From assembly GCF_964213995.1 (NCBI RefSeq), contig NC_135801.1:30628001-30692000 (forward strand): a DNA stretch of 64,000 bases. Reading direction: 5' to 3'. A program made the translations under genes and the position numbers. Below are positions 4,738 to 39,930 of the stretch, piece after piece (within the stretch, counting starts at the first letter, position 1; each line of letters starts with the position of its first letter). Below the pieces are notes generated by a model. The model saw nothing but the letters and a program-made list of their open reading frames with translations, did no database searches and was not told the DNA's origin. The stretch is from Mustelus asterias. Its lineage: Eukaryota.

Positions 4738-4810
4738 CAACTAATAGCTCAGTCGGTAGAGCATCAGACCTTTAATCAGAGGATCCAGGGTAAAAGTCTC
4801 TGTTTGAGTG
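4738..4810 (+). pseudogene. tRNA-Lys(UUU) pseudogene
   Basis: ATAGCTCAGTCGGTAGAGCATCAGACCTTTAATCAGAGGATCCAGGGTAAAAGTCTCTGTTTGAGTG aligns with vertebrate tRNA-Lys(TTT). Acceptor stem, anticodon arm and T-loop are mutated. Confidence 0.85.
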
Positions 4811-16456: not shown

Positions 16457-16528
16457 CTGTCAGCTGTCTGACTGCTGGGCTGCAGTTTGAACTCCTGCGG
16501 AAGAACCCCCAGTGGAGGGCTAGAATTC
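16457..16528 (-). CDS. INTS10: Probable alternative cassette exon of INTS10, 72 nt, phase 2-2
   Basis: gttttcaag|G AAT TCT AGC...GCT GAC AG|gtacca. A GC-richer island in AT-rich intron with an open frame: (K)NSSPPLGVLPQEFKLQPSSQTAD(R). Confidence 0.75.
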
Positions 16529-21492: not shown

Positions 21493-22494
21493 CATAGTGC
21501 AGAAAGCAGGAGCAAGAGAGACAGTGTGGATTTATTGTATATTCTAAATATTTGAATATACTGTACCAGGATGATTAAAGTTTCACCTTGTCACTTTTAA
21601 CAAGAAAGAAAAGAGGCATTTTGGAGTTTGTGAAGGAAAATAACCCTGCTCTTTGCTTGCTTTTTATTTATCAGCCTTTTGTGATGCATAAGAGGGCAGC
21701 TCATTACTGCTGTCGAGAATCCGATGAAAACAAGGGAACTGTATGAACTTTTGAACCAAGGTTAGACAACTTCAATTTGATGGCTGTTTCACTGAAAAAC
21801 AGTGTGGTGTACACAAACATCACCAGCAAATGGAGCCCATCATTCACAATGATGTTATGCCAGTATAACTACTGCATTGACAGCAAACGCAACCCATCAA
21901 AAATATTTTCATTCCACCATCAGATGCCTATTCAACAACAGGCAGAAACACAATCAAACCTAATCTTGCACTCATCTGATGTCCATGTGTACACTTTCAG
22001 TGGAAGTACTGGATAGTGATCAGAACTGACAACCTTGGTCAAGTGTCCCCTCCCTAATCCAAGTACATTGTGACAAACTAGAAGTACAAAACCTGGATTT
22101 TCCAGATCCGGATGGTAACAATAATCACTGGATAAACATAATTAACCATCCAGAGATTTTAAAACCATCACTAAATTGAGCAAAAGAAAAACAACTTAAC
22201 TGATGTTTAAAAGAAACTTTAAAATCTAACTGTTCCAAGGACATTCAAAATCTGAAAAACTTAAATGCTTAAAGAAATGTTAATTATTCACTAATCTCCC
22301 AAGATACTTCAAACTACTGTTGGCCTTCTCAGAGATTTAACACCTTCCAGCATCTTTTTCCCTTAGCAATTGCAACACATATTCCTTGTAACATGCTGTA
22401 ACAAAGCAAGGAGCAACATGAGCTACTCAAACAACGAAATTCCAATATGAGTCACAGTATGCACCAATAATCATTTTACAAGCTTAGTACTCAC

Positions 22495-22588
22495 TTTATT
22501 AGAAGACCTTGATTTGGCAAGAGCTCTAGATGAATTTTACCACCTTCTGTAGTTCTGAGATAAGCAAATTCTTCCAACATGTCAATGT
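22495..22588 (-). CDS. INTS10: INTS10 coding exon (probably exon 16), 94 nt
   Basis: ctgtcg|AC ATT GAC ATG...CTA ATA AA|gtgagt. (N)[30 protein letters not shown](K). The exact 5' edge depends on a non-canonical acceptor. Confidence 0.93.
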
Positions 22589-24051
22589 CGACAGATGTGA
22601 TTAAGGACAAGTTGACTATTGTTATTTTAGTACAACACTATTAGTTCAGTTTTAATAAATTCACAAAAGGTGCAGAATGTATTCTTCTACCACCAATCTG
22701 GGAGCACATTCAGAATTCAATCTCATCTGATTAATTTATTCCGATGCAAGAATATCACGTCTTGTACAACTCTTGAGGTATAAACAAACTACACAGAATT
22801 ACAGCGAACATACAACATAGAAGGGGTCACTCAGCCGCAGTGATATTTATGCTCCACGTGAATCTCCTCCTATTTCATCTATAATCACCTTAGCTTTACA
22901 GCATATTTTTCTACCCCCTTTTCTCTCATGTACTCTAATTGGTAGAAGTTATAGCTAGATTACAAAATGTTACTTCAGTACAGAGATATTCCATTTTAAG
23001 AGCGTTCTAATAATGCATTTTCGTTTTAATGCGATGCGAAAAGTAAGCATATACTTGGATACTGCTGCCTCCATTTTCACTTGTGTGGTTACTGCACATG
23101 GGCCCAGAACTGCATTGTAACTATGCATGTTCTGTCACAGACTACAGTAACATACTGGAGCCAAATGAATGCACAATTCAGTATTTTTCTTTTCAGTTCT
23201 TGGTGTGCTTCACCTGAAGTTCAAGATACGAGATCTGACTTTAGTCTGTTGAAAATACAAATTGCAGCACAATCAACGCTGAAGTCACACTCAAACTGGA
23301 ATGATTTCAGTGGCACCAGGGCTCCCTTAACTAACTGTTCAAATAAGGCAAGAAAGTTTGTTTCAAGTTAAAGAATTAGACATGCGCACAGCCAGAGGGA
23401 ATGTACAGATATTATAGTACAATATCCAATTAAATGCTTTTTAACATAGTAGAAACAAATGCTGTAACAACAGAATAACACAGAAGTTCATTAACACAGG
23501 TGTTATTGACCTCCAAATACTTTTACACACTTCATTTGATACTAAATCTAAAGGGGATAGACACTTCGGTTTCTGATCTCTTGAACTCCTGATTTCTGAG
23601 CATAACAGTTGAAAATAACAGATATATATGAAGCTCCAAATGCTTTTCAACTAATTAAGTTTAAGCACTGTCGTGAGTGTGCCAGAAGCTACCAGTCAAT
23701 TTGTGCAGTCAGATTACACCGGCAGCAAATAAAGTTGAAAGGCAAATTCATCAGTTCTGCTGGTGTGGAGTAATGTTGGCCGACACACCATTAGAAACGG
23801 CCTGTTCTTCACAGTGCAGACACATTCTTTATACCCACCTGGTCGACCAGACAGGACCTGAATTTAGCATCCAATTCAAAAATGGCCCCTCCACCAATAC
23901 AGCAGTCTCTCAATACTGCAACAAAGTGAAGTCTTTGGAACAGAATTTGAATCCATTACCTTCTGACATCAAACTCACAAATAAAGGTGATTAATAAACA
24001 GGATGGCATCTTAGAACTTCCGAGCAAACAATAAAAAAGGTAAAAGGATAC
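22589..24051 (-). other. INTS10: U12-type (minor spliceosome) intron of INTS10, apparent GT-CG termini
   Basis: 5' splice site GTATCCTTTT. Branch box TCCTTAAT at 22607-22600, with the branch A 12 nt before the intron end. No polypyrimidine tract and no AG between branch box and exon. Confidence 0.88.
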
Positions 24052-24214
24052 TCGTGACATAATTGAAGAAGTTTTCATACTGAAATGATCCTTGCTGACA
24101 GATTTTATCAACTGCTTTGAGAAACAGGTTCTCTCCACGAGGCCAGTCCAGCTGGAGCAGTACAATCACGTGACCTAAAGCTAGATCATCTCGTATGTCT
24201 GTGAAGGCTCTCAA
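24052..24214 (-). CDS. INTS10: INTS10 coding exon (probably exon 15), 163 nt, ending at a U12-type donor
   Basis: tag|TTG AGA GCC...GTC ACG A|gtatcctttt. [54 protein letters not shown]. Confidence 0.96.
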
Positions 24215-26393
24215 CTACAAAAAGCAAAGTTATTTGTTAAATCTCCCTGAAGGAAACAAGAAATTGCAGAATTATTTTTCTGTACTTTGGTTTTATTTTA
24301 TGTTGCCAAAGGCTGATTATCTCAATGAACAACTGAAAAAACTTAAATGATGATGAGATGACACAAAGCATTGGTGCACAAATGTGTATCTCCAGTGCAA
24401 TACAAGATACTAATTGATCCCCAAATGACTTATTTGTCATTTTAACCCAGCACTTCATTTGAATTATTTATTACTGTTTGGTATTGTTTACTAATAATTC
24501 AGGAGAGATTACCTGTCACCCTTACACCTCTTTCAGAGGTTCCCCACTGGCGAGCTCTATTCCACCAGGCATTACACTCACTTTCTATTTACTTGCGCAT
24601 GCAGGATCTTGCATATCAAAATTGAACATTTGCCAAGCCATATAAACAAACTTGTATGCACATACCTCCTCATCACATCTTCAGCATGCCCTAAAATAAT
24701 TTATAGCTTGTTATTTTTGAAGTAAATTCACTTCTATGTAGGAAAACCGAGCAACAATTTGCACACAGCAAGTTCCCAAAATTAGCAAATGACAAATAGC
24801 GAGTTTGTATTTTTGGTGGCGTTGTTTATAGCAGATGAAACGTTGGCCAAGCTACTGAAAAAATTCTCTGTTTGTTTTTCAAAAAGGGCTTAGGAACTTC
24901 TATATCATCTAGCAGTTGGATGGGATTTTTTATTTAATACCTGTTCTGAAAGATGGAAAGATAAAATATATGCTACATAAAATATACTAGATAAAATTCT
25001 TAAGAGCTTGACAGGGTAGATGCTGAGAAAAAACCCTCCTCTGGCTGTGAAGTCTTCAAATACCATAACCAATAGAACTAGTAGCCTCAGCCACTGTTCG
25101 GTTCTCCACACTCTCCATTTACCTACCAACAATCTCAAACAATCAGGTTTCATGCCTAGTATTCATATACTTCACTTTATCCTCACCCACTTGACACTAT
25201 TGCATGCCTCACATCCACGGCTCACAGATTACACACACACTGCCAACTATTCAACCATGACAGCCTTTTCACCCATATAAAATGCACAACTCTTACCGTC
25301 TCCCATGCCTCTCTCTGGCAGGACAACATGGTTGGCACTTGACTGGAAACAGCAAGAGCTAACTGGAGAGGCCAGCACTGGATAAGATGGCCTCTGGTCA
25401 TTATTGGGATGGCAATTGCCGAGGCCATGGCCAGTGGCAAGCTGAAATCATCAAAAACGGCAGCCTCATACTCAATTCTTTTTTCGCAAACCGCACTTCC
25501 CTCTTAATTTACACATTATTCTGATTTACAAGTAGATGCTGGAAATACTGCTTACTTTTCCCCTACTCTCCACATCACAACATTGCTCGTGTCTTTTTCC
25601 TTTCAGATATACAAGGAACCATAGGGAAACCTGCAATCCTCGCAAAGTTGTGTGCTCCTTCTCACTCTCTGCCTGCCCCTATGGAGAATGAAATGTAGTA
25701 ACCTTTGTGGCCTCCCTCAAGTAACAGTGGACAGCAAGCTGTAGGATATTGCAAAAGTCAAATGGATTAAAATTCATTACCTTCTTTCCCCCTCCCCTGC
25801 CTGTTTCAGTAACTTGGCCTGCTCTTCATAGTCTCTGCTGACTCTCCAAGTCACACTGCATTCGAAGGCAAATGCCTACAAGTGCATCCATGTGGGCAGC
25901 ACCAAGTTTGTGCAAAAGCTTTGAAGTAACAAAAAAGTGCTTAGCATGACTTCCAGGATACTTTTGCTCTTGAAACAACTATAGAAAGTACCACTTATGG
26001 AATTAGAGCAATAATCAGCAACTAACCTATACGCAATTGATCATCCCTTGAAAAGCACAAATAAGGTGCCCTTCCTATTGCTGAATGTGTGCTCAGTGGT
26101 GTGAGGTTAAAAGGCTGAAGTATCAACCTCCAAAATGGCATCAGAAACATCACAATCTGCTTGCTGTGTACCTCCAGCAGATGTTCATTGTGTGTGGTAA
26201 CATCTTTATCAATATGACATCGGGCGTGATTCACTCCTCAAGTGTGTTGCCATGCCTTGGATATCATTTGGAGCTCTAAGGGCACTTTGTGGTGCCCAAA
26301 AAAATAAGAGGCCAATGTGCCCAACTTATTACCCAGTATGTTTTGTGTCCACAATTCCCCATGTAACGACCTGGTGACTTTCTCTGAACAAAC

Positions 26394-31799: not shown

Positions 31800-34755
31800 A
31801 GGAAGCGTGGATTGTAGCTCCGGTGTACAGAAGGTTGAGAGTAGTGAGGTCATGGATGAGGTTTCAGAGTCGCAGGAGTGTACTGGCAGGCAGGAAGGCG
31901 GTTTGAAGTGTGTATACTTCAACGCCAGGAGCATCCGGAATAAGGTGGGTAAGCTTGCAGCATGGGTTGGTACCTGGGATTTCGATGTTGTGGCCATCTC
32001 GGAGACATGGATAGAGCAGGGACAGGAATGGTTGTTGCAGGTTCCGGGGTTTAGATGTTTCAGTAAGTGCAGGGAAGGTGGTAAAAGAGGGGGAGGTGTG
32101 GCATTGTTAGTCAAGGACAGTATTACGGTGGCAGAAAGGACATTTGATGAGGACTTGTCTACTGAGGTAGTTTGGGCTGAGGTTAGAAACAGGAAATGAG
32201 AGGTCACCCTGTTGGGAGTTTTTTATAGACCTCCGAAAAGTTCCAGAGATGTAGAGGAAAAGATTGCAAAGATGATTCTGGATAGGAGCGAAAGTAACAG
32301 GGTAGTTGTACTGGGGGACTTTAACTTTACAAATGTTGACTGGAAAAGCTATAGTTCGAGTACTTTAGAGGGGTCGGTTTTTGTCCAGTGTGCGCAGGAA
32401 GGCTCCCTGACGCAGTATGTAGATAGACCAACAAGAGGAGAGGCCACATTGGATTTGGTACTGGGTAATGAACCAGGCCAGGTGTTAGATTTGGAGGCAG
32501 GTGAGCACTTTGGTGACAGTGACCACAATTCGATTAAGTTTACTTTAGCAATGGAAAAGGATAGGTATATACCAAAGGGCAAGAGTTATAGCTGGGGGAA
32601 AGGAAATTATGATGCGATTAGGCGAGATTTAGCTGGCATAGGTTGGGAAAGGAAACTGCAGGGGATGGGCACAATTGTAATGTGGAACGTGTTCAAGGAA
32701 CAGCTACTACGCGTCCTTGATAAATATGTACCTGTCAGGCAGGGAGGAAGCAGACGTGTGAGGGAACCGTGGTTTACTAAGGAGGTTGAATCTCTTGTGA
32801 AGAGGAAGAAGGAGACTTATATTAAGATGAGACGTGAAGGCTCAGTTAGGGCGTTTGAGAGTTACAAGTTAGCCAAGAAGGACCTAAAGAAAGAGTTAAG
32901 AGCCAGGAGGGGACATGAGAAGTCTTTGGCGGGTAGGATCAAGGAAAACCCTAAAGCTTTCTATAGGTATGTCAGGAGTAAAAGAATGACTAGGGTAAGA
33001 TTAGGATCAGTCAAGGACAGGAGTGGGAAGTTGTGCGTGGAGTCTGAAGAGATAGGAGAGGCACTAAATGAATATTTTTCGTCGGTATTCACACTGGAGA
33101 GGGACAGTGTCGTTGAGGGGAGTACTGAGATGCAGGCTGTTGGACTGGATGGGATTGATGTTCATAAGGAGGAGGTGTTAGCAATTCTGGAAAGGGTAAA
33201 GATAGATAAGACCCCTGGGCCGGATGGGATTTATCTGAGGATTCTCTGGGAGGCTAGAGAGGAGATTGCAGAGCCTTTGGCTTTGAGCTTTGTGTCGTCA
33301 TTGTCTACAGGAACAGTGCCAGAAGACTGGAGGATAGCAAATGTTGTCCCCTTGTTCAAGAAGGGGAGTAGGGACAACCCTGGTAATTATAGACCGGTGA
33401 GCCTTACTTCTGTTGTGGGCAAAGTATTGGAAAGGATTATAAGAGATAGGATTTATAATCACCTAGAAAGGAATAATTTGATTAGGGATAGTCAGCACGG
33501 TTTTGTGAAGGGTAGGTCGTGCCTCACAAACCTTATTGAGTTCTTTGAGAAGGTGACCAAAGAGGTGGATGAGGGTAAAGCGGTTGATGTGGTGTATATG
33601 GATTTCAGCAAAGCGTTTGATAAGGTTCCCCATGGTAAGCTTTTGCAGAAAATACGGACACATGGGATTGAGGGTGATTTAGTGGTTTGGATCAGGAATT
33701 GGCTAGCTGTAAGAAAACAAAGGGTGGTGGTTGATGGGAAATATTCATCCTGGAGTTCAGTTACTAGTGGTGTACTGCAAGGATCTGTTTTGGGGCCACT
33801 GCTGTTTGTCATTTTTATTAATGACCTGGATGAGGGCGTGGAAGGATGGATTAGTAAATTTGCGGATGACACTAAAGTCGGTGGAGTTGTAGACAGTGCG
33901 GAGGGAAGTGGCAGGTTACAGAGGGACATAGATAAGCTGCAGAGCTGGGCTGAGAGGTGGCAAATGGAGTTTAATGCGGAAAAGTGTGAGGTGATTCACT
34001 TTGGAAGGAGTAACGGGAATACAGAGTACTGGGCTAATGGTAAGATACTTGGTAGTGTGGATGAACAGAGGGATCTGGGTGTCCATGTGCATAGATCCCT
34101 GAAAGTTGGCACCCAGGTTGATAGGGTTGTTAAGAAGGCGTACGGTGTGTTAGCTTTTATTGGTAGAGGGATTGAGTTTCGGAGCCAGGAGGTCATGCTG
34201 CAACTGTACAAAACTCTGGTGCGGCCGCATTTGGAGTATTGCGTACGGTTCTGGTCGCCGTAACATAGGAAAGATGTGGAAGTGTTGGAAAGGGTGCAGA
34301 GGAGATTTACCAGAATGTTGCCTGGTATGGTGGGAAAATCGTATGAGGAAAGGCTGAGGGGCTTGAGGTTGTTTTCGTTAGAGAGAAGAAGGTTAAGAGG
34401 TGACTTAATAGAGGCATACAAGATGATCAGAGGATTAGATAGGGTGGATAGTGAGAGCCTTTTTCCTCGGATAGTGTTGGCTAGCACGAGGGGGCATAGC
34501 TTTAAATTGAGGGGTGAGAGATATAGGACAGATGTTAGAGGTAGGTTCTTTACTCAGAGAGTAGTAAGGGCGTGGAATGCCCTGCCTGCAGCAGTAGTGG
34601 ACTCGTCAACATTAAGAGCATTCAAATGGTTATTGGATAAACATATGGATAATATTGGAATAGTGTAGATTAGAGGGGCTTTAGATTGGTACCACTGGTC
34701 GGCGCAACATCGAGGGCCGAAGGGCCTGTACTGCACTGTAATGTTCTATGTTCTA
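31800..34755 (+). mobile_element. Young CR1/HER1 LINE with near-complete ORF2 (APE endonuclease and RT)
   Basis: ORFs 31807..32199, 32212..34263 and 34276..34668 are one frame broken by only two stops. Motifs: YFNARSI, GDFN, SDH, QGSVLGP, FADD; 3' tail ATGTTCTATGTTCT. Confidence 0.96.
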
Positions 34756-35050: not shown

Positions 35051-35449
35051 TGTGGAGATGCCGGCGTTGGACTGGGGTAAGCACAGTAAGAAGTCTCACA
35101 ACACCAGTGTTTTTTTTCCTATTTTATTATTTTCTACTTTCCCATTCGTATTTCACCAAACACATACACAATCGCATTCAAACAAAAATTCTCCAATATC
35201 CAGCTGCTATTAAAATTCCTCATCTACCCCACTATACACATCCTAAAAAATAAGTTTCGCTTAACAGGATTCTCAGATGTGTTATTAAGCTTGGATTTTC
35301 CATCGTAATCTGTCCCCCACAGTCCACTTAGCGTCTGAGTATCCTCTTTTTAAACACTCCATCTGACGAAGGAGCATTGCTCCGAAAGCTTATGGTATTT
35401 GCTACCAAATAAACCTGTTGGACTTTAACCTGGTGTTGTGAGACTTCTT
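35051..35449. mobile_element. Penelope-derived insertion containing captured inverted intron DNA
   Basis: Ends belong to the same family as 21322-21492, in inverted orientation. Flanked by ACTGTACTAGGA at 35039-35050 and 35450-35461. Confidence 0.8.
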
Positions 35450-35943
35450 ACTGTACTAGGAACCAGGGATACACTGAGAAGTTTCCCAATGTGACAAGTC
35501 AAAATATGACTAGATAAAAATGTACATAAAAGCTGCCGGATTTTCATAAAAAAACCTAACTGGTTCACTAATGTCCCTCAAGGAAGGAAACTGCCACCCT
35601 TACGTCTGGCCTACATGTGACTACAGTTCCAAACTACATGGTTAACAATGCCTTCAGGCAACTAGGAATGGGGAAGATATGTGATCAAATTTGTTTAAAA
35701 AGAGGATACTCAGACGCTAAGTGGACTGTGGGGGACAGATTACATTGGAAAATCCAAGCTTAATAACAAATCTGAGAATCCTGTTAAGCGAAACTTATTT
35801 TTTAGGATGTGTATAGTGGGGTAGATGAGGAATTTTAATAGCAGCTGGATATTGGAGAATTTTTGTTTGAATGCGATTGTGTACGTGTTTGGTGAAATAC
35901 GAATGGGAAAGTAGAAAATAATAAAATAGGAAAAAAAACACTG
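35105..35943. repeat. 252-bp inverted repeat (35105-35356 versus 35692-35943)
   Basis: The arms are near-perfect reverse complements with only a few mismatches; spacer 335 bp. Confidence 0.95.
35359..35395 (+). ncRNA. Minimal type-I hammerhead ribozyme motif (Penelope type)
   Basis: CCAT-CTGACGA-A-GGAGC-ATT-GCTCC-GAAA-GCTT-ATGG. Stem I CCAU/AUGG, core CUGANGA and GAAA, stem II GGAGC/GCUCC, palindromic stem III AGCU. Confidence 0.75.
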
Positions 35944-38514: not shown

Positions 38515-39930
38515 ATTTGATTTGTATTATTGTCACATGTATTAACATACTGTAAAAAGCATTGTTTCTTGCGCGCTATACAGACAAAACATACTATTCA
38601 TAGAGGGGGAAACGAGAGAGTGCAGAATGTAGTGTTACAGTCATAGCTAGGTTGTAGAGAAAGATCAACCTAATGCAAGGCAAGTCCATTCAAAGGTCTG
38701 ACAACGGCAGGGAAGAAGCTGTTCTTGAGTTGCTTGGTACATGACCTCAGAGTTTTGTATCTTTTTCCCAAAGGAAGGTGGTGGAAGAGAGAATGTCCGG
38801 GGTGCATGGGGTCCTTAATTATGCTGGCTGCTTTGCCGAGACAGCAGGAGGTATAGACAGAGTCAATGGATGGAAGGCTGGTTTGCGTGATGGATTGGGC
38901 TACATTCACGACCTTTTGTAGTTCCTTGCGATCTTGGGCAGAGCAGGAGCCATATCAAGCTGTGATATAACCAGAAAGAATGCTTTCTATGGTGCATCTA
39001 TAAAAGTTGATGAGAGTCGTAGCTGACATGCCAAATTTCCTTAGTCTCCTGAGAAAGTAGAGGCGTTGATGGGCTTTCTTAACTATAGTGTCGGCATGGG
39101 GGGACCAGGACAGGTTGTTGGTGATCTGAAAACCTAAAAACTTGAAGCTCTTGACCCTTTCTACTTTGTCCCCATTGATGACAGGGGCATGTTCTCCTTT
39201 ACGCTTCCTGAAGTCGATGACAATCTCCTTCATTTTGTTGATATTGAGGGAGAGATTAACGTTGCCACACCAGTTCACCAGATTCTCTGTCTCATTCCTG
39301 TACTCTGTCTCGTCATTGTTTGAGATCCGACCCATTATGGTGGTGTTGTCAGCAAACTTGAAAATCGAATTGGAAGAGCATTTGGTCACACAGTCATAGG
39401 TGTACAAGGAGTGTAGTAGGGGGCTGAGAACATAGCCTTTGAGGGGCACCGGTGTTGAGGATGATCATGGAGGTGTTGTTGCCTATCCTTATTGATTGTG
39501 GTCTGCGAGTTAGGAAGTTCAGGATCCAGTCGCAGAGGGAGGTATCGAGGCCCAGACCACGGAGTTTGGAGATGAGTTTCGTGGGAATAATAGTGTTGAA
39601 GGCTGAGCTGTAATCATTAAATAGGAGTCTGATATAGGTGTCCTTGTTATCTAGGTGTTCCAGGGTTGAATGCAGGGCCAGGGAAATGGCATCTGCTGTG
39701 GACCTGTTGCAGTGGTAGGCAAACTGTAATGGATCCAGATAGTCCGGAAAGCTGGAATTGATTCATGCCATGACTGACCTTTTGAAGCACTTCATAATGA
39801 TGGCTGTCAGAGCCACCAGCCAATAGTTATTAAGGCACGCCGCTTGGTTTTTCTTAGGTACCGGGATGATGGTCGTCTTCTTGAAGCAGATAGGGACCTC
39901 AGATTGGTGTAAAGAGAGGCTGAAGATGTC
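38515..39930 (-). mobile_element. 5'-truncated Rex1/Babar-like LINE
   Basis: [13 protein letters not shown]...KFADNTTIMGRISNNDETEYR...IVIDFRK...KKAHQRLYFLRRLRKF...YRCTIESIL in ORFs 38955..39449 and 38670..38909; (CAAAT)n tail. Confidence 0.88.

Follow-up and report, generated by a model that had tools for sequence, protein, structure and literature searches.

Minor introns with CG ends and the INTS10 minor intron

Non-canonical ends account for ~3.8% of conserved animal minor introns, and the GT-CG pair, which a sequence-only reading of the locus described here had called a very rare terminus, is indeed catalogued among the rarest listed, with 46 introns (0.062%; PMC10639083). INTS10 is not named in the searched supplement of that work, and GT-CG is absent from Table 2 of PMC1557818, which reports that non-canonical minor intron ends switch frequently between human and mouse. 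The non-canonical introns that these two papers describe are one base off a canonical pair, as in the shark case. The closest individual precedents are the human POLR2E, OCRL, and NAPG U12-type junctions, which combine a U12 donor with a CG 3' end as the shark intron does. The POLR2E junction has been documented by an RT-PCR figure and a table, and is a minor form beside a dominant AG junction (626 versus 9018 reads; PMC4176328 supplement). The OCRL junction has a second entry as GT-AT, where its length differs slightly, and the NAPG one is based on a predicted transcript (PMC8280824). In Drosophila, eight GT-CG introns are annotated, each with a similar alternative splice (PMC4528330). Neither GT-CG nor INTS10 is named in the searched passages of PMC7367187, and a search of open-access papers found no published work on this shark intron.

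The INTS10 gene itself is known to carry a minor intron. In human, it covers hg38 chr8:19844239-19845703 (1,465 nt; PMC6717393 supplement), is also listed in the PMC6800510 and PMC10853781 supplements, and depends on the minor spliceosome for its removal (PMC9881141). INTS10 returned 0 matches in the three searched supplement files of the human non-canonical junction survey PMC4176328, and its being missing from these files suggests an AG 3' end; the human intron probably ends in AG. The human and mouse introns resemble the shark one in their gene, their U12 class, and the cryptic sites that surround them (PMC6717393, PMC9881141). The human donor context reads CAA/GTATCCTTT (PMC6717393) against CGA/GTATCCTTT in the shark, the slash marking the exon-intron border. 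The branch scores of the mammalian introns are low, 63 in human and 57 in mouse (PMC6717393), and the mammalian branch sites (TTAACCTGAATC, TTGACCTGAATG) are weaker than that of the shark. We infer that the shark GT-CG intron is orthologous to this human INTS10 intron, and take the near-equal lengths (1,465 versus 1,463 nt) as a coincidence.

Position and reading frame of the shark intron

The window analyzed here is a 64,000-nt stretch of the Mustelus asterias genome (NC_135801.1, positions 30,628,001 to 30,692,000), and its INTS10 features are listed below, with the runs X1, X3, and X4 described in the next section.

15594-62117, minus strand: 15 INTS10 exons, the 5' exons lying outside the window (tblastn, junction fitting, 632/632 identity to P0121)
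24052-24214, minus strand: INTS10 exon before the minor intron, human residues 574-627 plus base 1 of codon 628 (Pfam INT10 574-627 of 710, E 6e-29; 8rbx_j; junction fitting)
22589-24051, minus strand: U12-type intron, 1,463 nt, phase 1, GT...CG (joint 22588/24052 in X3 and X4; single fitted solution)
24042-24051, minus strand: U12-type 5' splice site GTATCCTTTT (sequence; predicted U11 and U6atac pairing)
22600-22610, minus strand: U12-type branch site TTGTCCTTAAT with presumed branch A 22601 (U12 complementarity; branch A placed from the consensus)
22589-22590, minus strand: non-canonical CG 3' splice site (X1, X3, and X4 contigs across the site agree with the assembly)
22495-22588, minus strand: INTS10 exon after the minor intron, remainder of codon 628 and residues 629-658, containing D630, E633, and E634 (Pfam INT10 629-658; role of E633 from PMC10312363 and bioRxiv 2024.01.30.577955)
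22547-22548, minus strand: in-frame exonic AG, +42 nt (position; matching isoforms annotated in four shark species; no such joint in X3 or X4)
22559-22567, minus strand: putative weak U12-like branch motif in the exon, TTGCTTATC, whose A lies 14 nt 5' of the +42 AG (sequence only)

Joined together, the 15 exons form an open frame whose product is identical at 632 of 632 residues to the NCBI M. asterias INTS10 isoform X1 (P0121), identity to the 17 other compared proteins being at most 97.9%. The product matches the INT10 profile (Pfam PF21045) with the frame intact across the joined exons, and the exon upstream of the minor intron has a single match in the 3.68-Gb genome, hence one INTS10 copy. 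This exon matches residues 574-627 of human INTS10 (PDB 8rbx, chain 8rbx_j). As the two flanking exons match INT10 positions 574-627 and 629-658, exactly one profile position (628) is left between them and one codon spans the junction. The 5' end of the intron at 24051 is GTATCCTTTT, and its 3' border reads TTGTCCTTAATCACATCTGTCG/ACATTGACATG, where 22589 is the final intron base. Fitting of all 14 window introns of INTS10 to the M. asterias protein gave a GT-AG solution for 13; the minor intron is the one case in which the single solution is GT-CG. A GT-CG junction is thus implied by NCBI's own M. asterias INTS10 protein.

The sequence-only reading had proposed a GT donor and a 3' end devoid of AG, had derived the CG end from a conserved YVT-N-IDML peptide, and had held that the nearby AC would shift the frame while TG or AT would stay in frame and add one or two residues. 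The letters at 24051 and 22589 and the fitted frames bear it out on all these points: among 45 candidate 3' ends, CG at 22589 is the sole one that yields T-N-I-D-M-L, the AC ends do shift the frame, and TG (22592) and AT (22595) add one and two residues, respectively. Around the CG end, the first AG on the upstream side is 27 nt away, ahead of the branch site, and the first on the downstream side is 18 nt away. The acceptors AC (22597 and 22587) were ruled out by the shifted frame, TG (22592) and AT (22595) by the altered peptide length, and AG -27 and AG +18 by altered frame or peptide length; none of them has a joint in the contigs.

Among the best 120 of 401 homologs, 99 contain T-N-I-D-M-L, and 15 continue into the intron with S-I (S-I-L in 14 of these). 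Since S-I is the translation of the GTATCC donor, these models indicate the same donor and phase in other species. Five of the 120 read T-K-G-G-K and one reads T-K-E-F. The Chiloscyllium gene model P0152 starts inside the intron and agrees in its branch spacing; its end is N-G, a fourfold-degenerate valine codon hiding whether N is A or C.

The window also contains several repeat-like elements. An open stretch of 687 codons (32200-34263, plus strand) contains endonuclease and reverse transcriptase domains and corresponds to a LINE-type retrotransposon lying antisense in an INTS10 intron, and partial RVT_1 and ALKBH8_N Pfam matches at 38955-39464 (minus strand) likely mark another LINE remnant. 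A 20-mer at 35339 (plus strand) recurs in inverted orientation ~370 nt away at 35709 (minus strand), and the two copies may be the termini of a small DNA element. A weak tRNA match (4740-4810, plus strand; 36 bits) is possibly the head of a tRNA-derived SINE. Within the minor intron, 22842-22935 is a short repeat-derived segment that unrelated contigs match with loose ends.

The junction in sequencing runs

Four of the 22 listed sequencing runs (X1, X3, X4, and X9) were compared as contigs over 22250-24450. X1, X3, and X4 all come from one study, X3 and X4 being different samples. No run is recorded as RNA; X3 and X4 were taken as RNA because spliced joints are present there and absent from X1. 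Contigs drop rare forms, and their depths show presence rather than splicing level. In both X3 (depth 11.2) and X4 (depth 10), 24052 is joined to 22588, skipping 1,463 letters with 0 ambiguous letters and a shorter arm of 30 letters. No joint other than 22588/24052 is listed in the contigs over 22250-24450, and the DNA-like X1 has no joined form. The use of a different acceptor, which the sequence-only reading had named as what would overturn it, is therefore not seen: the RNA-like contigs hold only the predicted joint. The upstream exon beyond 24081 is nearly uncovered in X3 and uncovered in X4. The GT-CG intron of INTS10 is real and supported by RNA, and it occupies an ancient intron position that was already known.

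U12 signals and mode of splicing

The donor GTATCCTTTT fits RTATCCTT and is the only one to do so among the 14 INTS10 introns in the window; with the genome's own snRNAs, its predicted pairing reaches -9.1 kcal/mol for U11 and -8.1 for U6atac. The branch motif TCCTTAAT at 22607-22600 fits TCCTTAAY and is predicted to pair with the genome's own U12 in a duplex of about -8.8 to -8.9 kcal/mol in which one A is bulged and the terminal pair is G-U. Across the entire intron, it ranks second among U12 duplex loci, the top one (-9.0) being near the 5' end. Under a base-composition model, both strict U12 signals would occur by chance at the protein-fixed positions with a probability of ~3.2e-4 x 1.5e-4. 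The genome contains U12, U11, and U6atac genes, all over the cut-off. The motifs, the pairing with the shark's own snRNAs, and a position matching the human minor intron support the U12 signature that had been read from the sequence, and the claimed distance to the branch point is exact, 12 intron bases following the presumed branch A22601. The claimed lack of a polypyrimidine tract stands in part: no separate tract fits the gap between the branch site and the intron end, but the pyrimidine fraction at -20 to -4 (0.69) is typical of the other 13 INTS10 introns (0.56-0.94).

In the reading that we regard as very probable, the intron is removed at the exact GT...CG boundary. The minor (U12) spliceosome likely performs this removal, the cut being likely placed by the distance from a strong branch site and not by an AG. 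The donor would be read by U11 and U6atac, and U12 would pair at TCCTTAAT, bulging A22601. The second step would then take place at the G located 12 nt past A22601, within the published optimum of 11-13 nt between U12 branch point and 3' end (review PMC3584512). Because the intron/exon sequence offers no AG at 11-13 nt from the presumed branch A, the minor spliceosome would cut by branch-point distance. Introns with non-canonical termini can also be spliced, though often with lower efficiency (PMC3584512). Most likely, the CG goes back to a tolerated change of a single base, presumably in the direction AG to CG, that is buffered by a branch site nearer the consensus than the human or mouse one.

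As for the snRNA genes, 22 U6atac-like matches are found across the genome, including head-to-head pairs on C25 and C20. On C21, two U12 genes of identical sequence are located 18.5 kb apart.

Splicing speed and intron retention

The CG end might slow the intron enough to limit INTS10 levels, a rate-limiting splicing step having been suggested by the sequence-only reading, and might so establish a feedback between the minor spliceosome and the snRNA-maturing complex; we consider this unlikely. In X3 and in X4, a single contig runs through the unspliced intron from end to end and includes 30 nt of each exon, yet contigs report presence and not level, and the following intron, an ordinary GT-AG one, likewise has its beginning covered by long contigs in both runs. 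In cells of human RNU4ATAC patients, the INTS10 minor intron is retained (delta-PSI 20) and the INTS10 protein falls (PMC9881141). This sensitivity, however, concerns a probable GT-AG intron and thus needs no CG end.

The +42 AG isoform and the INTS14 contact

Use of the exonic AG at +42 would replace residues 628-642 by one lysine, a net loss of 14 residues, the product reading YVT-KGGK. Such isoforms are annotated by NCBI in Mustelus asterias, Scyliorhinus canicula, S. torazame, and Heterodontus francisci, each time together with the normal form. Among the cartilaginous-fish proteins listed, 9 of 65 carry YVT-KGGK, and none does among the listed, incomplete isoforms of rays, skates, Lamniformes, Orectolobiformes, Heptranchias, Pristiophorus, and Callorhinchus. 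The deleted segment includes E633, which in human binds the metal of the INTS14 MIDAS site (bioRxiv 2024.01.30.577955); the E633A and E633A/E634A mutants lose INTS14 or INTS13/14 and keep INTS15 (PMC10312363). The short form is therefore expected to uncouple the arm module.

From these data, the CG end could be viewed as a selected switch, in which some transcripts slip to the +42 AG and INTS10 without residues 628-642 would keep INTS15 and lose INTS13/14. The paired isoforms of the four sharks, the loss of INTS13/14 with INTS15 retained in the E633A/E634A mutant (PMC10312363), and the role of E633 as INTS14 MIDAS ligand speak for such a switch. However, no +42 joint is found in the X3 or X4 contigs, the isoforms are automatic annotations, and human INTS10 has cryptic sites around its intron, so a bypass need not depend on CG. 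A selected switch thus appears quite improbable, and splicing at the CG end, placed by the branch site, remains the preferred reading.

Other INTS10 isoforms are annotated as well. The Heterodontus isoform X5 and the Heptranchias isoform X3 (P0122, P0144) contain ...GSFQ-NSSPP, as expected if a cryptic GT donor within the upstream exon were spliced to the next acceptor; the minor intron and all of the 22495-22588 exon are then skipped, with 41 residues lost including E633. The window carries a GT at the matching place, ~24080. Further downstream, a 72-nt cassette exon (NSSPP...; 16457-16528, minus strand) distinguishes 733-aa from 709-aa isoforms in many cartilaginous fishes, and the end of a contig of run X3 matches this exon.

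Authenticity of the CG site

An assembly error or a private allele at a true AG site is extremely unlikely and largely refuted, although the informative runs share one study and one of them is possibly the source of the assembly. The X1, X3, and X4 contigs cross the CG with zero differences from the assembly, while they differ from one another elsewhere (e.g., at 22500, 22704, and 22912), and therefore three distinct genotypes carry CG; X9, from another organism, has no coverage at the site. At a distance of ~90 nt, X1 splits heterozygous sites between two contigs with depths of 8.6 and 9.6, and yet it has one contig at the CG (depth 18.4). No AG allele at 22589-22590 is present in the contigs of the three genotypes, from which rare variants drop, so the genomic AG that the sequence-only reading had set against itself is not seen in the DNA-like run.

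A spliced sequence arising from a paralog or retrocopy, or from reverse transcription, template switching being often behind non-canonical junctions (PMC4176328), is disfavored to the point of being scarcely credible, given the one genomic match of the exon, a DNA-like run without the joined form, zero repeated letters at the joint, and a junction that restores the conserved peptide exactly.

Significance of the shark INTS10 intron

The shark INTS10 intron adds to a rare but already catalogued class. It is a natural, RNA- and DNA-backed minor intron with CG as its main 3' end in a conserved single-copy gene, whereas the human GT-CG cases cited above are side products or rest on predictions; in contrast to these, the shark intron has CG as the sole detected junction and is without an AG at the right distance. 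It thereby offers a substrate for asking how far the branch-point distance alone fixes the U12 3' splice site, and annotation restricted to canonical ends will mis-splice INTS10. In galeomorph sharks, the CG end might even be a conserved switch, weak minor splicing leading to use of the exonic AG and to an INTS10 without the INTS14 metal ligand, which would uncouple the Integrator arm module that helps mature snRNAs; this is a very speculative and improbable proposal. If the +42 isoform is real and regulated, the efficiency of minor splicing would be linked to Integrator assembly via one structurally defined contact.
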